A stretch of 34,296 bases of DNA from Coleofasciculus sp. B1-GNL1-01 (GCA_040220235.1 JAVJTO010000104.1), one strand, 5' to 3'. Shown: positions 22,181-31,362, counted from the stretch's first letter. Numbers and translations: made by a program. The notes: generated from the letters alone by a model not told the origin.

Positions 22181-22514
22181 TCAATATTTAGTTGGCGTGG
22201 GTAAGTTTACGGCTGTACTAGAGGATGACTTGTACTGGAGGATGACTTTTTTACCCAACTCAGTTACTTGCCAAAGCTGGATTGATCAGAAAATCCGATA
22301 GGAGAGGTAGTCTTCCGCTTTTTCCCTTTTCGATAAGTCTAGAGTCATAAGCCCGAACTCCAACAGGCGCACTAGGGCAAAGTTTGCCAATCATTAAGTT
22401 TTGTCACAAAAGGCAGAATAGCTGGAGATATTCCCAGAGTAATAACGAAGGCAAAACATTGAAGATGACGACGGTGGGAAAAGGAGAGGGTTAAGTTTTG
22501 AGTATTGAATAACT

Positions 22515-23426
22515 ATGGATGAACAACTGACGCCGTTGATTCTCAAGGTTCAGCAGTACAAATGCTCCCCAGAACAACGGCGCAATGCTGTAACCGAACT
22601 GGTTGATGAAATTCTGCGATCGCGTAAAATTTGTCGCCCCCTGAATCGTCAACCCCTGACAGGGATTTACTGGACAATCTATCAGCAGGTACGAGAGCAA
22701 CTTAGGCAGACTCTGGAACAGGATATTAATCAGTACAATTTGTCAAGTCCTGGGGTGAGAGACTGGATCAGTATCCGACGCGATCGCGCTTTTAGAACTG
22801 TTCTCACTGATGAGTCTCTCAAACAGTTCGCCCTAGACGCCCAACAGCATCCCCCCGGTAGCGAAGCCCGAAATCACGCTTTGCGGGAATTGGTGCAAGC
22901 CATTGGGCTATCGGGAAAACTGAGTCGCCCGCATCTGGGACAATTTCAACCCGAATTTTATGCCCTCATTTATGATGAGGCAGTGAATCAAACCTTGATG
23001 TATATTTGCCAACACATTGACTACTATGACCCCAATCGAGGCAAACGTCAACAATTTATGACCTGGGTAAATTTTCGCTTGAATAAGCAAATCCTCGATT
23101 CCTATCGAGACTGCCGAAATTATTCATTCCAGACGGTTTCCTCCCTGGCGGATTTAGAGAATATACCCCAACCCGAAGCCGCGATTCCGGTGTCCGATCA
23201 GATAGCCGATTGGATTCGTGACGATGCGGACAATCAATTTAAACGGCACTATATTCGCAATCGCCCTGATGCTAATTTTCAAGCTATTGCCTTAGCCACC
23301 TTAGCCGAAAAGAGTTGGGAACAGATTGCGGCTGAGTTTGGTATCAGTGCGTCAACATTGAGTAGTTTTTTCTATCGCTGTTGTCATAAATTTGCGCCCA
23401 AATTTCAGCAATATTTGTCTAACTAA
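22515..23426 (+). CDS. Sigma-70-family (ECF-like) factor with duplicated N-terminal module
   Basis: Region-2-like YDEAVNQTLMYICQHIDYYDPNRG...FMTWVNFRL; region-4-like HTH KSWEQIAAEFGISASTLSSFFYRC. Confidence 0.72.
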   Translation: MDEQLTPLILKVQQYKCSPEQRRNAVTELVDEILRSRKICRPLNRQPLTGIYWTIYQQVREQLRQTLEQDINQYNLSSPGVRDWISIRRDRAFRTVLTDESLKQFALDAQQHPPGSEARNHALRELVQAIGLSGKLSRPHLGQFQPEFYALIYDEAVNQTLMYICQHIDYYDPNRGKRQQFMTWVNFRLNKQILDSYRDCRNYSFQTVSSLADLENIPQPEAAIPVSDQIADWIRDDADNQFKRHYIRNRPDANFQAIALATLAEKSWEQIAAEFGISASTLSSFFYRCCHKFAPKFQQYLSN

Positions 23427-23442
23427 CGTTCAGGATTAAGAG

Positions 23443-24411
23443 ATGCCAACCATGACAATTAACACCATTCATCCGTTTACATTTACTGTACCACTTGGCT
23501 GGAAAGCCCATGCCGCAGCCGAACAACAACGGCGTAGTCAAAGGAATCCGGAAAAAGCCAAACAGGTTTATCTGAATACCTTAGCCGTTTATGCGGTACA
23601 TATTTATTTGCAATGCCAAGGATTTAACACCGACTGGCAGAAACGAGACAGTGCTAATCCAGTAATGCAGACACTGCTGGATAGTGCTGATTTACCGGTG
23701 AAACATTGTGGAACTTTAGAGTGTAGACCTGTATTACCCGATGCTGAAACGGTTTATATTCCCGCCGAGGTTTTTCAGGAACGAATTGCCTATGTCGCTG
23801 TGCAGTTCAATGACTCCTTACGGGAAGCGACGCTATTGGGATTTGCGGAAACGGTGACGACTCAAACATTACTTTTGGAAAAATTACAACCTCTAGAGAA
23901 TTTGACCGTTTATCTGAATCAAATTCGCCAAGCTAATTCCCCCAAACTGCCTGTTAATTTGCGTCAATGGTTAGAGAATAGCTTTGAGAAAGGATGGCAG
24001 ACGGTAGAATCTCTGTTAGGTGCAGAAGTGGGAAATGTCGCCTTTGCCTTTCGGGATGCATCTCAGTTGCAATTGAGACATCAGCCAATTGTCAAGCGGG
24101 CAAAGATCATTGATTTAGGCATGGCACTAGCCGATCGATCTGTAGCCTTACTGGTTGCGATTATACCTCTCAAGGAGCAGAAAATCAGTATACTGATACA
24201 AGTGCATCCAGGGTCTGGTGAACGGTACTTATCCCCAAATCTTCAACTCACGTTGTTATCGGAAGCTGGAGAAACCCTTCAGGAGGTTTCATCCCGGAGT
24301 TTAGATAATTTTATCCAACTCCCCCGCTTTCGTTGTAATTCAGGAGAACGGTTTACGATACAAGTATCGCTTCAGGGTGTCAGCGTTAGCGAGGAGTTTT
24401 TTGTCGGATAG
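23443..24411 (+). CDS. DUF1822 family protein
   Basis: AKQVYLNTLAVYAV..YL, G.LECRPV, ERIAYVAVQ, ATLLGF, VNLRQWL..F..GWQ, C-terminal beta domain (ILIQVHP..GE.YL.PNL.L.LLSE.GE.LQEV.SR..DNFIQL). Confidence 0.82.
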   Translation: MPTMTINTIHPFTFTVPLGWKAHAAAEQQRRSQRNPEKAKQVYLNTLAVYAVHIYLQCQGFNTDWQKRDSANPVMQTLLDSADLPVKHCGTLECRPVLPDAETVYIPAEVFQERIAYVAVQFNDSLREATLLGFAETVTTQTLLLEKLQPLENLTVYLNQIRQANSPKLPVNLRQWLENSFEKGWQTVESLLGAEVGNVAFAFRDASQLQLRHQPIVKRAKIIDLGMALADRSVALLVAIIPLKEQKISILIQVHPGSGERYLSPNLQLTLLSEAGETLQEVSSRSLDNFIQLPRFRCNSGERFTIQVSLQGVSVSEEFFVG

Positions 24412-24422
24412 TTGTCTAAGTC

Positions 24423-24484
24423 GGGGCGGGTTTAGTTGCATCAGGGTGAGGTAAAAAACGATAATAGTGAAACCCGCCCCTACA
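24423..24484. repeat. REP-like hairpin GGGGCGGGTTT...AAACCCGCCCCTAC
   Basis: Inverted arms; same family in opposite orientation at 32378..32438. Confidence 0.75.
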
Positions 24485-24486
24485 AA

Positions 24487-24514
24487 ACCAATCACCAATC
24501 ACCAATCGCCAATT
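24487..24514 (+). repeat. Short tandem heptamer repeat (STRR-like)
   Basis: ACCAATC x3 plus GCCAATT. Confidence 0.7.
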
Positions 24515-24520
24515 AATCCT

Positions 24521-26809
24521 GTGAGTAAACGTGTCAAATTAAACCTAATCCCAGGCGATTTACACGACGGTTTTACCGCCGTCACTGTGCAGTTATCCAC
24601 AGATGATGACTACCAATCTATGCAAGTTACAGGCAGTTTACCCCCAGCGCCGGAAATTGAACAGCTTTACCGACGCTGGCAATTACTCTATCAGGCACTT
24701 TCGCAACGGTTGTCTCGGTCAAGGCGGATTGAATTTGAAACCCAAACCCATGATGTGATTCAGGTGTCTGAGGTGGAATTCCAGCAATTGTGTCAGCAAT
24801 TGCAAACCTTACTAAATACGTGGTTGAATTCCCAGGAATTCCGTCCCATTGACCAAAAATTGCGCCGGGAATTAAATCCTAGGGATGAAATTCAGGTGAT
24901 TGTGGAAACCAATGATGATGTATTGCGGCGTCTTCCTTGGCATTTATGGGAGTTTTTTGAGGATTATCCTGGTGCAGAATTAGCCGTGAGTGCGTTAGAC
25001 TATGCGCCGATTAAACCTACCCCCCGTACTCGCTGGGGAATCGTGAGAATTTTAGCGGTTTTGGGTCATAGTGCGGGTATTGATATTCAGACCGATCGCC
25101 GGGTTTTAGAGAGGTTACCGGGTGTCGAGTTGGTGTTTTTACAAGAACCCAGACGCCGACAGTTAGATGAGTATCTTTGGGATAAAAAAGGTTGGGATAT
25201 TCTCTTTTTTGCGGGTCATAGTCAAACTGAGGGAGAAACAGGACGAATTTCGATTAATCCCCAAGACAGTTTAACCATTCCCCAATTAAAACACGCCCTG
25301 AGACATGCGATCGCGGCTGGGTTGCAGTTGGCGATTTTTAATTCCTGTGATGGGTTGGGATTGGCGCGACAGTTGGCGGATTTGCAGATTCCTTATATTA
25401 CGGTGATGCGGGAACCTGTACCCGATGGGGTGGCGCAGGCGTTTTTGCAGCATTTTTTAGCCAGTTTTGCTAGGGAACCGATATCCCTGCATTTAGCGGT
25501 ACGACAGGCGCGAGAACGGTTAGAATGTCTGGAGGATGAATGTCCTTGTGCTTGCTGGCTACCTGTAATTGGTCAAAATCCGGCGGCTAAACCGTTAACG
25601 TGGCAACAGTTACGGGGAAGAGAACGGCGGCGATTCCACGTCCCCTTGATGGCGAGTGCGATCGCAACAGTATTCGTGATTGGGATGCGATCGCTAGGAT
25701 GGCTGCAAATCATAGAATTACAGGCGTTGGATCAGCTAATCCGGCTGCGATCGGATGAAGGGATAGACTCACGGCTGTTGGTGGTGGAAGGAACGGAGGA
25801 GGATGTAAATCGCTATGGCTATCCCCTACCGGATGGAATTTTAGCCGACGTGATTGAAAAGTTAGAGGAGAATCAACCGCGAGTTTTAGGGTTAGATATT
25901 TTTCGCGATCGCCCCGTAAAAACAGGTCATGCGGCGTTGATGCGCCAGTTTCAGCAGAATCACCGTTTAATTGGATTGTGCAGTGTCAGGGAAGCGAATA
26001 ATCCCAACAAACCCACGATCGCACCGCCACCGGGATTGTCCCCGGATCGCCTGGGGTATAGTGATTTGGTGGTAGATCCCGATGGGATAATTCGCCGTCA
26101 TTTGATGTTCATGCAACCCAGTCTTAATGATGCTTGCGCCACGAACTATTCCCTGAGTGTACGGTTAGCATTGCGGTATTTAGCGGTGGAGGGGATTGAA
26201 CCACGAAACCTGGATCGAGAACGGGTGCAAGTAGGAAACGTGGTATTTAAGGATTTTCAGGGTAATATTGGCGCTTACCATCGCCTAGATACGCGGGGAT
26301 TCCAGGTATTGCTGAATTATCGGGATGCTAAAGATGTCGCCCATCGGGTTAGTGTTACCCAGGTGTTACAGGGTCAAGTGAATCCGGATTGGGCGAAGGA
26401 TAAGGTTATTTTAATTGGTATGAGTGCGCCAACGGCGTCTGATGAATTCTTTACTCCTTATAGCGCCAGTGAATTACCCTATCGGAAAATGCCAGGGGTG
26501 GTTGTGCAAGCGCAGATGGTGAGTCAAATTCTCAGCGCGGTACTCGATGAACGTCCTTTATTATGGGTGTTACCCACTTGGGGGGAATGGATGTGGATTT
26601 GGGTGGGGTCAGGGGTAGCGGGGATAATGGTATGGCGCTGGCGTCACAGCGTTTATGGGAGACTGGTTACTGTGGGTGCGATCGCGGTTTTATATGTTGC
26701 CTGTTTCGGGGTATTGATAGTAGGGGGATGGATGCCTTTGATGCCATCGGCGTTAGCATTGATATTCACTGGAAGTCTGATCATTGCCTATAGTCAACTA
26801 CATGGATAA
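24521..26809 (+). CDS. CHAT (caspase-like) domain plus CHASE2 extracellular sensor membrane protein
   Basis: LRRLPWHLW, FFAGHS (His), IFNSCDG (Cys), MREPVPD, WLPV. TM followed by CHASE2 (DSRLLVV, PRVLGLDIFRD, D.DGIIRR, KVILIG, MPGVVVQAQMVSQIL) and three C-terminal TMs. GTG start chosen. Confidence 0.9.
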   Translation: MSKRVKLNLIPGDLHDGFTAVTVQLSTDDDYQSMQVTGSLPPAPEIEQLYRRWQLLYQALSQRLSRSRRIEFETQTHDVIQVSEVEFQQLCQQLQTLLNTWLNSQEFRPIDQKLRRELNPRDEIQVIVETNDDVLRRLPWHLWEFFEDYPGAELAVSALDYAPIKPTPRTRWGIVRILAVLGHSAGIDIQTDRRVLERLPGVELVFLQEPRRRQLDEYLWDKKGWDILFFAGHSQTEGETGRISINPQDSLTIPQLKHALRHAIAAGLQLAIFNSCDGLGLARQLADLQIPYITVMREPVPDGVAQAFLQHFLASFAREPISLHLAVRQARERLECLEDECPCACWLPVIGQNPAAKPLTWQQLRGRERRRFHVPLMASAIATVFVIGMRSLGWLQIIELQALDQLIRLRSDEGIDSRLLVVEGTEEDVNRYGYPLPDGILADVIEKLEENQPRVLGLDIFRDRPVKTGHAALMRQFQQNHRLIGLCSVREANNPNKPTIAPPPGLSPDRLGYSDLVVDPDGIIRRHLMFMQPSLNDACATNYSLSVRLALRYLAVEGIEPRNLDRERVQVGNVVFKDFQGNIGAYHRLDTRGFQVLLNYRDAKDVAHRVSVTQVLQGQVNPDWAKDKVILIGMSAPTASDEFFTPYSASELPYRKMPGVVVQAQMVSQILSAVLDERPLLWVLPTWGEWMWIWVGSGVAGIMVWRWRHSVYGRLVTVGAIAVLYVACFGVLIVGGWMPLMPSALALIFTGSLIIAYSQLHG

Positions 26810-27204
26810 GCCAGTAGGGTTTGTAGTCAGGGAACTTTAGCCCTATATTCGGTTGGGTTTTCTGGCGCCAACCCAACCTACAACCTATTCCACCATTTTA
26901 GCTGTGCCACGCCATTAGATTGTGAATTATCGAATCCTTGCAGATCGGTTATTTGAGTCCTTTAATTGGCAAACCAAGCCAGCAAAACCGGATTAAATGG
27001 ACGCCAAGGAATCAGTGTATCTGGAAATCAATTTATTGCCCTTGTAGCATAAATAAATGCCCTATACTAACCTTTGGACGAAATGCTAACGTCAGTGGCA
27101 ACTGACAAAGGTTAACAGGTGATTATTTCCACTCAATGGGTAATAACTTGGAGATAAGCACCTGAGTTCACAATGAGATGCTTCACTTGAACCAGGACAA
27201 CTCT

Positions 27205-27969
27205 ATGAAACCGTGGCAAACTCAGCCTATTCTGCTAACGTGCGCTTTGAATTTAGCCCTATTTAGTCTTAGCAGCCGTACTCTAGCACAGACCAGTTTT
27301 CGTGCAGATAAGTTCCCTCCATCCCAAGAGATATTAGAATTTGAACCGCCTCCCGATGGCGCACCCGGCGATCGCCAAAATTCCGGTAGTCGTCCAGGTT
27401 GTCCTCACGTTCAAAAGCCGTTTATGGCGTTGGTTCCAGCGACGAATTTGGGTATTACTGTTGCTGAATATCCTACCTTTTGGCTATATGTTCCCTATCC
27501 GTCGGGTTGTATGGAGTTGGTGTTGGAAGATGAAATAACCAAACGAACCGTTTATAAAACTCAGTTTCAAATAACTAAGGCTTCAGGAATTATCAGTTTC
27601 CGTATTCCTCAAACTGCACCAGGATTAGAGATTAACAAAAAGTACCGTTGGCGGTTCTTTTTTTTCGGCAATTCGGCTAGTCATGCCGACTTCATGGCGG
27701 TGAATGGCGTGGTTAAGCGACGTTTAATCGATAAAACGCTACAACGTCAATTAAAACGATTATCTCCCTTACAGCGAGTTAAGCTTTACGCCAAGAATGG
27801 AATTTGGCACGAGGCTTTAACTGAACTCGCTAAATTGCGCTTAATCTATCCCCAAGCCAATGAAATTATTACCGCTTGGACAGATTTATTACAGCATCCA
27901 TTGGTACGTCTGGATGAGTTAATTTTAGAACCGTTCGCCTTTTGTACATCAGCGCGATCGCGTGCTTAG
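27205..27969 (+). CDS. DUF928 domain exported protein
   Basis: Signal peptide; F.PPP.G.PG.R..SGSR..C, ALVP, T..EYPTFWLYVPY, GIISF, YRW, YA.NGIWHEAL, W..LL. Confidence 0.88.
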   Translation: MKPWQTQPILLTCALNLALFSLSSRTLAQTSFRADKFPPSQEILEFEPPPDGAPGDRQNSGSRPGCPHVQKPFMALVPATNLGITVAEYPTFWLYVPYPSGCMELVLEDEITKRTVYKTQFQITKASGIISFRIPQTAPGLEINKKYRWRFFFFGNSASHADFMAVNGVVKRRLIDKTLQRQLKRLSPLQRVKLYAKNGIWHEALTELAKLRLIYPQANEIITAWTDLLQHPLVRLDELILEPFAFCTSARSRA

Positions 27970-27983
27970 TTAGGTACACAGAC

Positions 27984-28016
27984 AGATCCCCGACTTCTTC
28001 AAGAAGTCAGGGATCT
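27984..28016. repeat. Palindromic cyanobacterial intergenic repeat
   Basis: AGATCCCCGACTTCTT-C-AAGAAGTCAGGGATCT. Confidence 0.75.
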
Positions 28017-28053
28017 TAGACGCCAAATCCTACAACTGAACCAATCCAGACTT

Positions 28054-31000
28054 ATGACTCAAAAGCCAAGTCAATTATTGTCACAACCGACAAGTACAGA
28101 AGCGAGTAAGTCTCAGATAATCGGACTACTCGAAATTGTTATTATTCCGCCATGGGTGAAGCGTTTTGTCGCCTATCTTTTCTCTCGGATTTTCAGGTTT
28201 TGTTTAAACCGATTTAGAACCCCACGAAAATCGGCAAACTATCCCCCTAAAAACCCTGTCTCCAAGAAACATACGTTTGCCTATTCTTCTCTGGGACAAT
28301 ATCAGCCAGCTATTGAATTTTATCAGCTATCCCTAGCGACGGTACGAAAAATTAGTGCCTACTCAGAGAAATGTTTTTCCTTAAATACGAAAGGACAGAA
28401 AGACGTTTTCTGGGAGCAATATCAGCAATCTTCGACAAGTTTACGAAAAATCACTCATCGCTATCAAGAGGCTATCTGTCTATCTAATCAAGGTAAGACT
28501 TATTTTTCTCTAGAACAATACCCGCAGGCAATTAAATCTTGCCAAGCCGCCTTAGATATATTTCGAGAAATTAGCGATCGCGCTCAAATAGCGGCATCCT
28601 TATCCAGTCTGGGCAAGGCGTATTTGGCTTTGAAACAATACCCCCAGGCAATTGACTGTTTTCAGCAATCCTTAGAACTGTTTCAGAAACTCGAATCTTG
28701 TTGGGATCAAGCGGTGTCTCTATACAATCTAGGAAAGGCTTATAGTTCTTTAGATGATTATCAGTCAGCCATTCAGTCTTTCCAAGACGCTTTAAAATCT
28801 TTCCAAGACATTAATCATGATTCTGGGGAAGCGGCTTGTCGATATAATCTGGGTAAGATTTACCTTTCGGGGGAACAATACCAACCAGCGATTGAGTCGT
28901 TTCAGCAATCCTTAGCAATTTTCCAAAACATTGGTCATCGTAAAGTCGCGTCTTGTTTGTACTACCTAGGTAAAGCTTATCTTTGTTGTGAACAGTACCA
29001 GCCAGCGATTCGGTTTTTTCAACAATCCTTAGTAATTTTCCGAAAAATTAGAAATCACTCAAGACTCGCCTATTGTTTATATTACATGGGCAAAGCTTAT
29101 CTAGAGTTGGATCACTACCAACAAGCCATTGACTCTCTGCAAAAATCCTTGGTCATTTCCCGCAAAATTGGCAATAACTATGGAGAAGCCGCTGCTTTGA
29201 GTAGTCTGGGCAAGGTTTATCTTGCTTTGGATCAATACCCAAAAGCAATTGAGGCGTTTCAACAATCACTAATGATTTCTCGGAAACTCAGTCACCCCTC
29301 AAAAACTGCCTCTGCTTTATCTAACTTGGGCAATGTTTACAGTTTCCTCGGACAAGCCCAGCTAGGAATTCAACGTTATCAAGAATCGTTGAGCATTTGC
29401 CGGGAAACGAATGATCAAGCGGGGGAAGCGAATGCTTTAGGGAATCTAGGTAATGCCTACTTTTTACTTCAACAATACCAGCAGGCAATTGAGTTCTATC
29501 AGCAGTCTTTAGCCATCGCCAAAAAGATAGAATTTCGTTCAGGAATAGCCAATTCCTTCTATAATTTAGGGAATGCCTATTTTTGCCAACAACGCTACAA
29601 GCAAGCGATTGAGTTTTACCAGCAATCGTTGACAATTGCACGAGAGATTGGGACTCGTTCTGGAGAAGCCCGTTCCTTGAATAGTTTGGGCAATAGTTAT
29701 GACGCGATCGCGCAGTATAATCTGGCAATTGAGTGTCATCAGCAATCCTTAGCCATTATCCAGAAAATTGGTCTTCGTTGCCAAGAAGCTATGTTTTTAA
29801 ACAATTTGGGTGTTACCCTATTTAAAGCGGGTAATCTTACCTCTGCTCAAACTCATCTTGTCTCATCACTAGAAATTTACGAATCCTTGCGTGTGGGATT
29901 AAATCATCCAGATAAAGTATCAATGGTTGAAACTCAGCGAAGTCCCTACCAGACATTACAACGGGTTCTGATCGCGCAGAATAAACCCCATGAAGCCTTG
30001 GAAATTGCTGAACGGGGACGGGCAAGGGTATTTGTAGAATTATTAGCAACTCGTTTATCTACTCAGTCAAATGTTCACCCTTCGATTACACCACCTACCA
30101 GCCAAAATATTCAACAGATTGCCAAAGCGCAAAATGCTACAGTGGTTGAATATTCGCTAATTCGATTTAAGCATGATGATCAATCTAGACTCTATATTTG
30201 GGTCATTCAACCCACGGGTAAAATCGCCTTTCGCCAAGTTGATATTACATCCTTGGATACGCCTCTAAAACACTTGATTCCCCATACTCGTCAATCCATC
30301 GGTGTCAGATGTTGCGGTCAAACCCAAACCTTTATTCCGGGTGATTGGGTCAGATTAAACAGTGATGCGGCGGATTATCAACCCTGGGAAGTCATCGCCG
30401 TGAATTCCCAAAGCAAGACTCTGATTATCCGTCAACCGTCTTGGGAAGAGGGTATTATCATTGAACGTCCCATCAGCGATGTTGTGGATAAAGCCGCCGA
30501 TAATCGTGCCTACTATTCTCACTTACAACAACTTCATAAATTACTGATTGAACCCATTGCCAACCTTCTGCCCACAAATCCCGAATCTCGCGTTATTTTT
30601 ATCCCCCATCAAGAACTATTTCTGGTTCCTTTTCCCGCCCTACAAGATGCTTCGGGGAAATACTTAATCGAAACACATACTATCCTTACCGCCCCAGCGA
30701 TTCAAGTTCTTGATTTAACCCATAAACAACGCCAACGAGTTGGGAAGGGAAATGTATTAGTTGTGGGTAATCCTACCATGCCAGAGATGCCCTTGATACC
30801 TGGCGATCACCCTTTACCCTTAGCCTCTCTTCCCCACGCCCAACGGGAAGCCGAAGCCATCGCCCAACTGTTCAATACCCAAGCCCTCACTGGAAACCAA
30901 GCCAGTAAAATTACCGTGGTTGAGAATATGGCAAACGCCCGGATTATTCACCTAGCCACCCATGGCATACTCGATGAAATCTGGGGATTAGGGAGTGCGA

Positions 31001-31362
31001 TCGCATTAGCCCCTTCTACTAACGATAACGGCTTACTTACGGCAGATGAAATTCTCACCATGAACCTCAACGCCGAATTGGTTGTCCTCAGCGCCTGCAA
31101 TACGGGTCAAGGTCGAATTACCGGGGATGGGGTCATCGGTTTATCCCGCTCCCTGATTTCAGCAGGTGTACCCAGTGTGATTGTATCCCTGTGGACAGTG
31201 CCAGATGCCCCCACAGCCTCCCTGATGCAGGAATTTTATCAAAATCTACAAAACAATCCTGACAAAGCCCAAGCGCTGCGACAAGCCATGCTGACGACAA
31301 TAGAAAAACATCCTCATCCCAGAGACTGGGCAGCTTTTACACTGATTGGAGAAGCCGAATAA
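28054..31362 (+). CDS. TPR-repeat plus CHAT (caspase HetF-associated) protease
   Basis: About a dozen 40-aa TPR units (LGNAY..L.QY.QAIEFYQQSL.I). ALEIAERGRAR, IPHQEL..VPF.AL, HLATHG (His), LVVLSACNTG (Cys), SLW.V.D, DWAAF.LIG. Confidence 0.93.
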   Translation: MTQKPSQLLSQPTSTEASKSQIIGLLEIVIIPPWVKRFVAYLFSRIFRFCLNRFRTPRKSANYPPKNPVSKKHTFAYSSLGQYQPAIEFYQLSLATVRKISAYSEKCFSLNTKGQKDVFWEQYQQSSTSLRKITHRYQEAICLSNQGKTYFSLEQYPQAIKSCQAALDIFREISDRAQIAASLSSLGKAYLALKQYPQAIDCFQQSLELFQKLESCWDQAVSLYNLGKAYSSLDDYQSAIQSFQDALKSFQDINHDSGEAACRYNLGKIYLSGEQYQPAIESFQQSLAIFQNIGHRKVASCLYYLGKAYLCCEQYQPAIRFFQQSLVIFRKIRNHSRLAYCLYYMGKAYLELDHYQQAIDSLQKSLVISRKIGNNYGEAAALSSLGKVYLALDQYPKAIEAFQQSLMISRKLSHPSKTASALSNLGNVYSFLGQAQLGIQRYQESLSICRETNDQAGEANALGNLGNAYFLLQQYQQAIEFYQQSLAIAKKIEFRSGIANSFYNLGNAYFCQQRYKQAIEFYQQSLTIAREIGTRSGEARSLNSLGNSYDAIAQYNLAIECHQQSLAIIQKIGLRCQEAMFLNNLGVTLFKAGNLTSAQTHLVSSLEIYESLRVGLNHPDKVSMVETQRSPYQTLQRVLIAQNKPHEALEIAERGRARVFVELLATRLSTQSNVHPSITPPTSQNIQQIAKAQNATVVEYSLIRFKHDDQSRLYIWVIQPTGKIAFRQVDITSLDTPLKHLIPHTRQSIGVRCCGQTQTFIPGDWVRLNSDAADYQPWEVIAVNSQSKTLIIRQPSWEEGIIIERPISDVVDKAADNRAYYSHLQQLHKLLIEPIANLLPTNPESRVIFIPHQELFLVPFPALQDASGKYLIETHTILTAPAIQVLDLTHKQRQRVGKGNVLVVGNPTMPEMPLIPGDHPLPLASLPHAQREAEAIAQLFNTQALTGNQASKITVVENMANARIIHLATHGILDEIWGLGSAIALAPSTNDNGLLTADEILTMNLNAELVVLSACNTGQGRITGDGVIGLSRSLISAGVPSVIVSLWTVPDAPTASLMQEFYQNLQNNPDKAQALRQAMLTTIEKHPHPRDWAAFTLIGEAE

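Follow-up and report, generated by a model that had tools for sequence, protein, structure and literature searches.

How a cue sensed at the cell membrane could reach gene expression without a kinase is the question raised by a locus of Coleofasciculus sp. B1-GNL1-01 (GCA_040220235.1 JAVJTO010000104.1), which lies in a stretch of 34,296 nucleotides that was analysed as a whole and is called the window here. The locus comprises genes for a sigma-like protein (gene 1), a DUF1822 protein (gene 2), a receptor-protease with CHAT and CHASE2 domains (gene 3), a DUF928 protein (gene 4), and a tetratricopeptide repeat (TPR) protein with a second CHAT domain (gene 5). A first-pass annotation, made from the DNA alone, had taken these genes for a single signaling module in which DUF1822 serves as a cleavable anti-sigma factor. 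The present analysis favors a narrower answer as reasonably likely, drawing on structural models and on analogy: CHASE2 would gate the CHAT domain of gene 3, which would cut DUF1822 at Arg204 and free the sigma-like protein, forming a kinase-free membrane-to-gene switch.

Predicted complex of the sigma-like protein and DUF1822

The protein encoded by gene 1 had been named a sigma factor. A likeness to this group stands, as the sigma70-ECF (extracytoplasmic function) model TIGR02937 matches residues 154-289 with 30.5 bits (E 2.4e-7), but the name does not, since the score is below the cut-off of 42.9 and no Pfam family matches; judged by its sequence, the protein is sigma-like. The TIGR02937 cut-off is narrowly exceeded by a paralogue from the same genome (43.1 bits), and several of the 278 homologues found at E ≤ 1e-15 carry the JGI label "sigma24 family". 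The protein also contains an internal repeat, with residues 2-75 recurring at approximately 99-172 (34% identity, E 7e-9).

Modeling indicates that DUF1822 very probably binds this sigma-like protein. Residues 10-322 of DUF1822 modeled together with residues 94-303 of the sigma-like protein gave a score of 0.84, whereas the best of three controls reached 0.01, and the interaction supposed by the first-pass annotation is accordingly predicted by the type of complex model it had called for. Of 157 solved complexes, 116 reached the mark applied to this score, as did 2 of 215 mismatched pairs; these counts are only rough for alignments built by the user. The runs agreed in at least 93% of contacts, with a predicted local distance difference test (pLDDT) of at least 82 for the partner. 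It is less likely that the high score reflects a similar complex already known to the model, because no solved relative was found in the PDB for the sigma profile, nor for the DUF1822 model by Foldseek at E ≤ 0.001. On DUF1822 the interface comprises residues 12-162 only, namely the N-domain, and on the sigma-like protein residues 114-128, 150-166, 196-230, and 259-301. By motif likeness, we take residues 150-166 to be region 2.2 and residues 259-301 to be sigma-4. Region 2 and sigma-4 are the domains that ECF sigma factors dock onto RNA polymerase (PMC13342950).

Fold of DUF1822 and a conserved arginine in its linker

The AlphaFold2 model of DUF1822, computed from an alignment of 81 rows, has a pLDDT of 87.6; a fold from the single sequence (pLDDT 43) was not used. 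The model consists of an alpha/beta N-domain (approximately residues 11-165), a W-rich motif, a loose linker, and a beta-sandwich C-domain (residues 217-320). The best match of the N-domain in a fold search is I-Ssp6803I (Z 9.9, root mean square deviation 3.0, 115 aligned residues), and the next four matches, with Hje/Hjc at Z 7.2-8.6, are PD-(D/E)XK nucleases as well, so the modeled N-domain has a fold of this nuclease-like kind. The C-domain resembles Ig-like sandwiches (Z 6-7), which may merely reflect a common arrangement. The model contains no TPR, and on this basis the reading of DUF1822 as a TPR protein was rejected. A Foldseek search of viral models gave two uncharacterised matches at E ≤ 0.001, with a restriction endonuclease ranking third. 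In an Atlas structure search, a cluster carrying zf-HC2 (anti-sigma zinc finger) on 94% of its members includes a part resembling the C-terminal region of DUF1822, with a template modeling (TM) score of 0.63 by query that lies under the naming bar.

The linker holds a candidate site for the cleavage that the anti-sigma proposal requires. Its residues 191-210 are modeled with low confidence (pLDDT 54-60), and amid otherwise variable columns Arg204 is kept in 80 of the 81 aligned DUF1822 homologues and in 41 of the 44 proteins encoded at the loci described below.

Two types of sigma-like protein and N-domain, A and B, were defined by likeness to the window proteins, and the type of one tracks that of the other (type A, 25/26; type B, 8/8; no crossings). 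Type B loci occur at three places among type A loci in trees of the C-terminal 150 residues of DUF1822 and of the protease, with moderate support. Because the types pair without crossing, yet type B is scattered in these trees, the pattern suggests that the sigma-like protein and the N-domain have been swapped as a unit onto a constant C-domain and protease.

The receptor-protease and its kinship with HetF

Gene 3 encodes, in order, an EACC2-like N-region, a CHAT domain (Pfam, residues 220-352), a membrane helix, a CHASE2 domain, and C-terminal membrane helices. The topology follows from hydropathy together with the usual layout of CHASE2 proteins. The dyad residues H251 and C294 are present in all 44 aligned receptors and D320 in 42. 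The CHAT domain is the sole cytoplasmic output domain of these receptors, because in each of them only a short tail follows the last membrane helix and no C-terminal output domain is present; the cytoplasmic output role previously ascribed to the CHAT domain of gene 3 is upheld in this respect. A conserved region of approximately 170 residues precedes CHAT in all 44 receptors and can be called an EACC2 domain by its position, the architecture being equal to that of the EACC2+CASPASE+CHASE2+TM rows of PMC8195603. Paralogues in the same genome end in CHASE2, PBP_like_2, Peripla_BP_6, or TPR, which makes this end the variable sensor region. With an N-terminal caspase that retains its dyad, a variable sensor, and adjoining ECF-like sigma and DUF1822 genes, the locus is an EACC2-caspase system.

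A FastTree analysis of CHAT domains (90 rows, with a random sample of 10 locus EACC2 rows) groups HetF, represented by the best match in the genome, with the EACC2-CHATs and apart from C-terminal CHATs (support 0.96). The HetF-like and gene 3-type proteases share 25% identity over 256 columns (E 4e-11). Orthology of gene 3 with HetF and of gene 1 with HetZ was considered and rejected: gene 3 scores 15.3 bits on the HetF model NF045509 (cut-off 1200), gene 1 has no match to the HetZ model, and better matches lie elsewhere in the genome. The best HetF match, on contig C74, reaches 941 bits, itself below the cut-off, and hetZ-patU lies on C154. Failed orthology lowers the probability that gene 3 is HetF but not that it works like HetF. 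The genome holds hetZ-patU (L013, G000:C154), two further HetZ-like genes (L014, L015), and the HetF-like gene (L093, G000:C74). An Atlas feature search with DUF1822 residues 190-322, from which DUF1822 clusters were excluded, placed PatU in the top two ranks (0.78 and 0.77), values under 0.9 that constitute a lead only. The arginine matching R117 of PatU3 is kept in 24 of 25 aligned PatU proteins.

Conservation of the gene set

Gene 3 was searched in 121 genomes of the class, with up to eight candidates scored per genome, and 24 genomes (the present one included) matched at E ≤ 1e-110. The analysis covers 40 of the 41 full-length non-self matches, from 23 genomes, and excludes six partial matches; some of the 40 loci are cut short, and one ends at a contig edge. 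DUF1822 is encoded upstream in 34 of the 40 loci and the sigma-like protein in 33, while DUF928 is found downstream in 34 by a strict 1.3-kb rule and in 37 by listing. This linkage is far above chance, and the neighborhood survey proposed in the first-pass annotation thereby confirms conserved linkage of the sigma-like, DUF1822, receptor, and DUF928 genes.

The same does not hold for gene 5, which had been counted as part of the module. Within the 7.5 kb downstream, 22 of the 40 loci have another CHAT gene, but just five have it on the same strand, and gene 5 therefore looks optional. Two other sigma-DUF1822-CHAT-CHASE2-DUF928 loci of the same genome have no adjoining TPR-CHAT gene; taken together with the rarity of co-oriented CHAT genes elsewhere, this reduces the core to four genes, and the distribution of gene 5 rules out an obligate five-gene module. 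Most downstream CHAT neighbors are proteins of 860-990 residues whose N-termini resemble signal peptides or the starts of secreted filament proteins (by eye and hydropathy). Gene 5 lies outside this exported, DUF928-linked clade, the sole neighbor in its own clade being that of locus L069, and it has no evident signal peptide, whereas its nearest paralogues have one. Compared with the nearest relative locus (L016, from an uncultured Coleofasciculus sp., with a gene 3 that is 98% identical), it is under purifying selection, with a ratio of non-synonymous to synonymous polymorphism (pN/pS) of 0.23 overall and 0.12 in CHAT. From these sequence features, gene 5 is likely an accessory gene rather than the source of the protease that cuts DUF1822.

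The core thus consists of the sigma-like, DUF1822, CHAT-CHASE2, and DUF928 genes and joins two modules. The output module comprises the sigma-like protein, DUF1822, and the N-terminal CHAT domain, which the same genome also pairs with PBP, Peripla_BP_6, or TPR sensors; the input module comprises CHASE2, DUF928, and the exported TPR-CHAT. DUF1822 is present in 102 of 201 genomes searched, with eight copies in this genome. One weak match to it (E ~1e-8 to 1e-12), perhaps a stand-alone relative of one domain, occurs in 35 of 82 small genomes of family f26 (1.7-2.2 Mb, e.g., G009 and G158). At one locus (L075, G210), two open reading frames (ORFs) encode DUF1822 and another two the EACC2 region, representing either a broken copy or an assembly error.

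DUF928 and the input side

DUF928 genes occur within 4 kb of 16 of the 24 CHASE2 genes in the genome, whatever the output of the latter, and of 13 of its 17 TPR-CHAT genes with products of approximately 900 residues, compared with about 4% by chance in each case. The signal peptide earlier ascribed to DUF928 is recognizable by eye and in a crude hydropathy window if translation starts from Met10, the start also given in the Atlas record; it is not a call made by a signal-peptide program. Near the mature N-terminus lies a small-small-S/T-Arg motif, with R72 kept in 57 and C75 in 60 of 62 proteins. A DUF928 paralogue of 449 residues (G000:C71:101029-102378, minus strand) carries nine tandem copies of this N-terminal motif, and such repeats would fit a peptide precursor. 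Four DUF928 genes stand in tandem at G000:C50:21698-25765. No PDB sequence match was found for DUF928, and an Atlas structure search returned DUF928 itself only. That DUF928 is a ligand of CHASE2, or the precursor of one, has slightly less than an even chance.

Proposed mechanism

In the resting state, the N-domain of DUF1822 would cover the sigma-2-like helix (residues 150-166) and the sigma-4 helix-turn-helix of its partner, blocking the binding of RNA polymerase and promoter, as the complex model implies. The Ig-like C-domain may dock the sigma-DUF1822 pair on the protease, because the C-domain stays with the protease while the sigma-like protein and the N-domain change together. CHASE2, probably with DUF928, would gate the cytoplasmic CHAT domain; the exported DUF928 would act here as ligand or ligand precursor, which is the weakest step. 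Cleavage of DUF1822 at Arg204 by the CHAT domain of gene 3 is fairly probable, the cut after Arg being modeled on the specificity of HetF for PatU3. The N-fragment would probably then be broken down, as for CalpT and Csx30, leaving the sigma-like protein free to turn on genes.

A wider relay across the envelope can be pictured, in which an exported TPR-CHAT cuts DUF928 at GG(S/T)R, the resulting peptide serves as the ligand of CHASE2, the cytoplasmic CHAT of the receptor cuts DUF1822, an anti-sigma derived from a disused restriction-nuclease fold, and a hidden sigma family is freed, with HetF-PatU3-HetZ as a developmental offshoot. This relay is favored by the nine-fold motif of the DUF928 paralogue, the proximity of 13 of 17 TPR-CHATs to DUF928, the placement of HetF in the same clade, and PatU as the nearest Atlas neighbor, and it is nevertheless rather unlikely as a whole.

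Several observations weigh against the switch proposed here. On the output side, gene 1 falls below the sigma cut-off, and profile comparison, in which the HetZ pairing did no better than controls, links it to HetZ at the helix-turn-helix only; hhalign gives DUF1822 and PatU3 a probability of 3.9%, compared with 3.0% for an unrelated control, so homology is not shown. The linker Arg is absent from 3 of the 44 locus DUF1822 proteins, two of which (L020, L074) are encoded beside an EACC2-CHAT, and D83 (81/81) and E93 (80/81) are kept among DUF1822 homologues, which would be compatible with a nuclease role. Six of the 40 receptor loci have no DUF1822 gene upstream, loci from kindred genomes are non-independent samples, and co-variation of adjacent genes is also expected from shared descent. 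On the input side, DUF928 is encoded 368 nt away from gene 3, and in the window protein a Pro stands right after R72 (as in 4 of 57), which may block a cut.

Alternative explanations

The explanation that survives best among the alternatives, although improbable, is the autoproteolysis put forward in PMC8195603, whereby the EACC2-caspase cleaves itself on receiving a signal, which DUF1822, as an uncut adaptor or scaffold, passes to the sigma-like protein. The window copy of the receptor has an Arg-rich stretch before its first membrane helix, and the three DUF1822 proteins that lack the linker Arg would be explained. However, no Arg is conserved between CHAT and the membrane (at most 13/44, residues 383-389), in contrast to Arg204 of DUF1822 (80/81), and the related HetF cuts a separate substrate.

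Slightly less probable still is a defense role, in which the N-domain of DUF1822 is an active PD-(D/E)XK nuclease released by cleavage and the sigma-like protein restrains or co-regulates it. The five top fold matches and the conserved D83 and E93 agree with such a role, but with the catalytic residues placed by motif, the position of the motif Lys holds Arg (R95, 77/81), and type B N-domains lack both acids. The position in helix 1 that is acidic in Hjc-type enzymes, which we equate by eye with Val49 of DUF1822, points the same way. A shared fold does not establish a function, and on the residues present the N-domain is probably an inactive nuclease fold, even if PMC8195603 ranks such systems among those that counter invaders.

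Of similarly low probability is a tether from which the sigma-like protein is released without having been inhibited: DUF1822 would hold it at the receptor, and after the cut the N-fragment would remain attached to it, acting as a specificity factor or chaperone. Every predicted contact of DUF1822 comes before Arg204, so that a cut alone would leave binding intact, and the fold of the N-domain is of a DNA-binding kind; the same interface, however, covers the sigma-2-like helix and sigma-4, and the bound N-fragments of CalpT and Csx30 are, or may be, degraded further and so removed.

Finally, that gene 5 is the core cytoplasmic protease cutting DUF1822 as Csx29 cuts Csx30 is highly improbable, for although it has an intact dyad, a constrained CHAT domain (pN/pS 0.12), no evident signal peptide, and the same orientation, and Fischerella loci of PMC8195603 also end in TPRs+CASPASE, two other loci of the genome lack such an adjoining gene, a co-oriented downstream CHAT gene is found in 5 of 40 related loci only, where its products look exported, and L069 alone supplies a neighbor in its clade.

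Upstream motif of the sigma-like genes

A Gibbs search of 30 regions upstream of related sigma genes yielded a two-part motif, consisting of a TTTGTAA-like box, a spacer of approximately 15 nt, and a TTGCnnAA-like box (information 13.3-14.4, compared with 11.8-12.4 in four shuffles). In leave-one-out scoring, 9 of the 30 regions exceed the 99th and 13 the 95th percentile of upstream regions in this genome, and such a motif would fit self-regulation of the sigma genes. The copy in the window scores 13.5, just below the 99th percentile (13.9), and its upstream box is degenerate; stronger sites lie on C102 and C135 of the same genome. No enrichment behind the motif was detected in this genome for DUF928 (2/28) or CHAT genes (2/61). 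A secreted-protein regulon was likewise rejected, as PEP-CTERM-like tails (3/185 top genes) and crude signal peptides (17/185) are not enriched. Sigma-70 promoter and terminator scans remained at chance level.

Some further observations concern this gene family. A gene with a PEP-CTERM-like tail (L004, G000:C28:21981-22676), divergent from another sigma-DUF1822 operon, has a motif score of 17.3, among the best in the genome, and is a possible local target. At G000:C119:17490-19079 (plus strand), a motif copy and the first ~28 codons of a nearby sigma gene (C119:28747) are fused in frame to an unrelated pentapeptide-repeat ORF. A protein of 586 residues (L008:4378-6138, G000:C82) carries a sigma-family-related domain behind an unrelated N-region. 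In the window, a 17-nt sequence occurs twice in tandem with one mismatch (22214-22247) in the interval between hsp20 and the sigma gene, ending where the candidate promoter starts.

Layout of the locus and its flanks

All five ORFs reported in the first-pass annotation were recovered on the plus strand, together with the gap of 16 nt between the sigma-like and DUF1822 genes and the His/Cys dyads of both CHAT proteins (Table 1). The subsequent gaps measure 55 nt (genes 2-3), 368 nt (genes 3-4), and 84 nt (genes 4-5). Pfam scores are 216 bits for DUF1822, 39 for CHAT and 226 for CHASE2 in gene 3, 177 for DUF928, and 253 for TPR and CHAT in gene 5. Every gene that differs from its counterpart in L016 has a pN/pS of at most 0.25. 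The flanks are ordinary, with HSP20 and FtsH on one side and an iron-type ABC transporter on the other. A linked Cas7-11 effector, as in a type III-E CRISPR protease module, was not seen: a Pfam scan of 16 of the 38 window ORFs, including both flanking genes, found no Cas families, and CRISPR arrays were not searched for.

Table 1. Positions of the genes and sites of the locus, counted from the first nucleotide of the window
Feature	Position	Strand	Remarks
Sigma-like gene (gene 1)	22515..23426	+	Divergent ECF-like; 303 aa; N-terminal helical unit duplicated
DUF1822 gene (gene 2)	23443..24411	+	Pfam match; predicted cleavable anti-sigma
Arg204 codon of DUF1822	24052..24054	+	Predicted P1 of the cut, from conservation and low linker pLDDT
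CHAT-CHASE2 receptor-protease gene (gene 3)	24467..26809	+	780 aa; probable start GTG 24521
Dyad codons of gene 3	H251 at 25217, C294 at 25346	+	AGHS/NSCD
DUF928 gene (gene 4)	27178..27969	+	Likely exported; probable start ATG 27205; R72 codon 27391
TPR-CHAT gene (gene 5)	28054..31362	+	1102 aa; dyad H970/C1015 intact (THG/SACN); optional neighbor
Weak candidate promoter of the sigma gene	22246..22276	+	Putative; degenerate copy of the two-part motif

Comparison with known systems

The gene set is already in print as an EACC2-caspase system, which the first-pass annotation had missed. Kaur, Iyer, Burroughs, and Aravind (2021; PMC8195603) described, on computational grounds, EACC2-caspase genes with CHASE2, ECF sigma, and DUF1822 and proposed self-cleavage; their supplement contains the same gene order in Fischerella. 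The likeness extends to the constant N-region and caspase, the variable C-terminus (here CHASE2 and membrane helices), and the adjoining ECF sigma and DUF1822 genes. In contrast to the present model, in which DUF1822 has no TPR, that paper calls it a TPR protein, and the text examined neither gives it an anti-sigma role or a cut site nor connects the system with HetF-PatU3. The main text of the ECF classification paper PMC7826278 does not contain CHAT, DUF1822, caspase, or CHASE2, and PMC9679502, PMC5587647, and PMC2853523 mention the domains without a mechanism. Literature searches, for which subscription journals were largely outside reach, found no bench study of the gene set. New here are the binding prediction with its controls, the site at which DUF1822 is predicted to be cut, a revised fold for this protein, and the shift of gene 5 from module member to optional neighbor.

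If the proposed switch is true, DUF1822 gains a named function, a sigma family missed by standard profiles is exposed, the only output of a receptor is a caspase-like protease, and the heterocyst switch acquires an evolutionary source. It also supplies a candidate ligand for CHASE2 sensors in a gene set common in cyanobacteria and reduces the question to a single anti-sigma interface and a single cut site, both predicted, together with one catalytic Cys.

More distant likenesses concern single parts of the system. In magnetotactic bacteria, MtxA, a small Ig-like and TPR protein, stands beside a CHASE2 adenylate cyclase as DUF928 does beside its receptor (PMC4439547); kinship of MtxA with DUF928 is a weak Atlas lead only (0.80, with the family on 15% of members). 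CHAT-family proteins are tied to the release of an ECF sigma in the type III-E system Csx29-Csx30-CASP-sigma and in DdvA-DdvS. Unlike the receptor considered here, Csx29 is switched on by RNA-bound Cas7-11 (PMC10028731), and in DdvA the TPR-CHAT, whose active site is incomplete, forms the periplasmic portion of the anti-sigma protein itself (PMC11506125). CalpL-CalpT-CalpS (bioRxiv 10.1101/2024.05.08.593097) resembles the proposal in that a two-domain anti-sigma is cut between its N-part, which has a nuclease fold (MazF-like), and its small C-domain, and in that the ECF sigma is freed only once the N-fragment is broken down further. CalpL, however, is a Lon-type protease that responds to cyclic oligoadenylate made by type III CRISPR, and the system is soluble and has different folds.

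The closest parallel is found in Anabaena PCC 7120, although the first-pass annotation had known of no worked-out mechanism and had turned to Csx29/Csx30. There, in the heterocyst switch of nitrogen-fixing cell development, HetF cuts PatU3 after R117 (PMC9457339), and PatU3 inhibits the ECF sigma HetZ (PMC13342950). HetF, a cytoplasmic CHAT protease anchored in the membrane, belongs to the same clade as gene 3; its Arg-specific cut falls in a soluble inhibitor whose gene directly follows that of an unusual ECF sigma; and after the Arg come a variable loop and a C-terminal portion that, by prediction or judgment, is rich in beta structure. Unlike gene 3, HetF is encoded by an unlinked gene and has a periplasmic TPR region instead of CHASE2, and homology between DUF1822 and PatU3 is not shown. 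The locus, one more copy of the catalogued EACC2 type, works like HetF-PatU3-HetZ on the mechanism proposed here but is a separate system.

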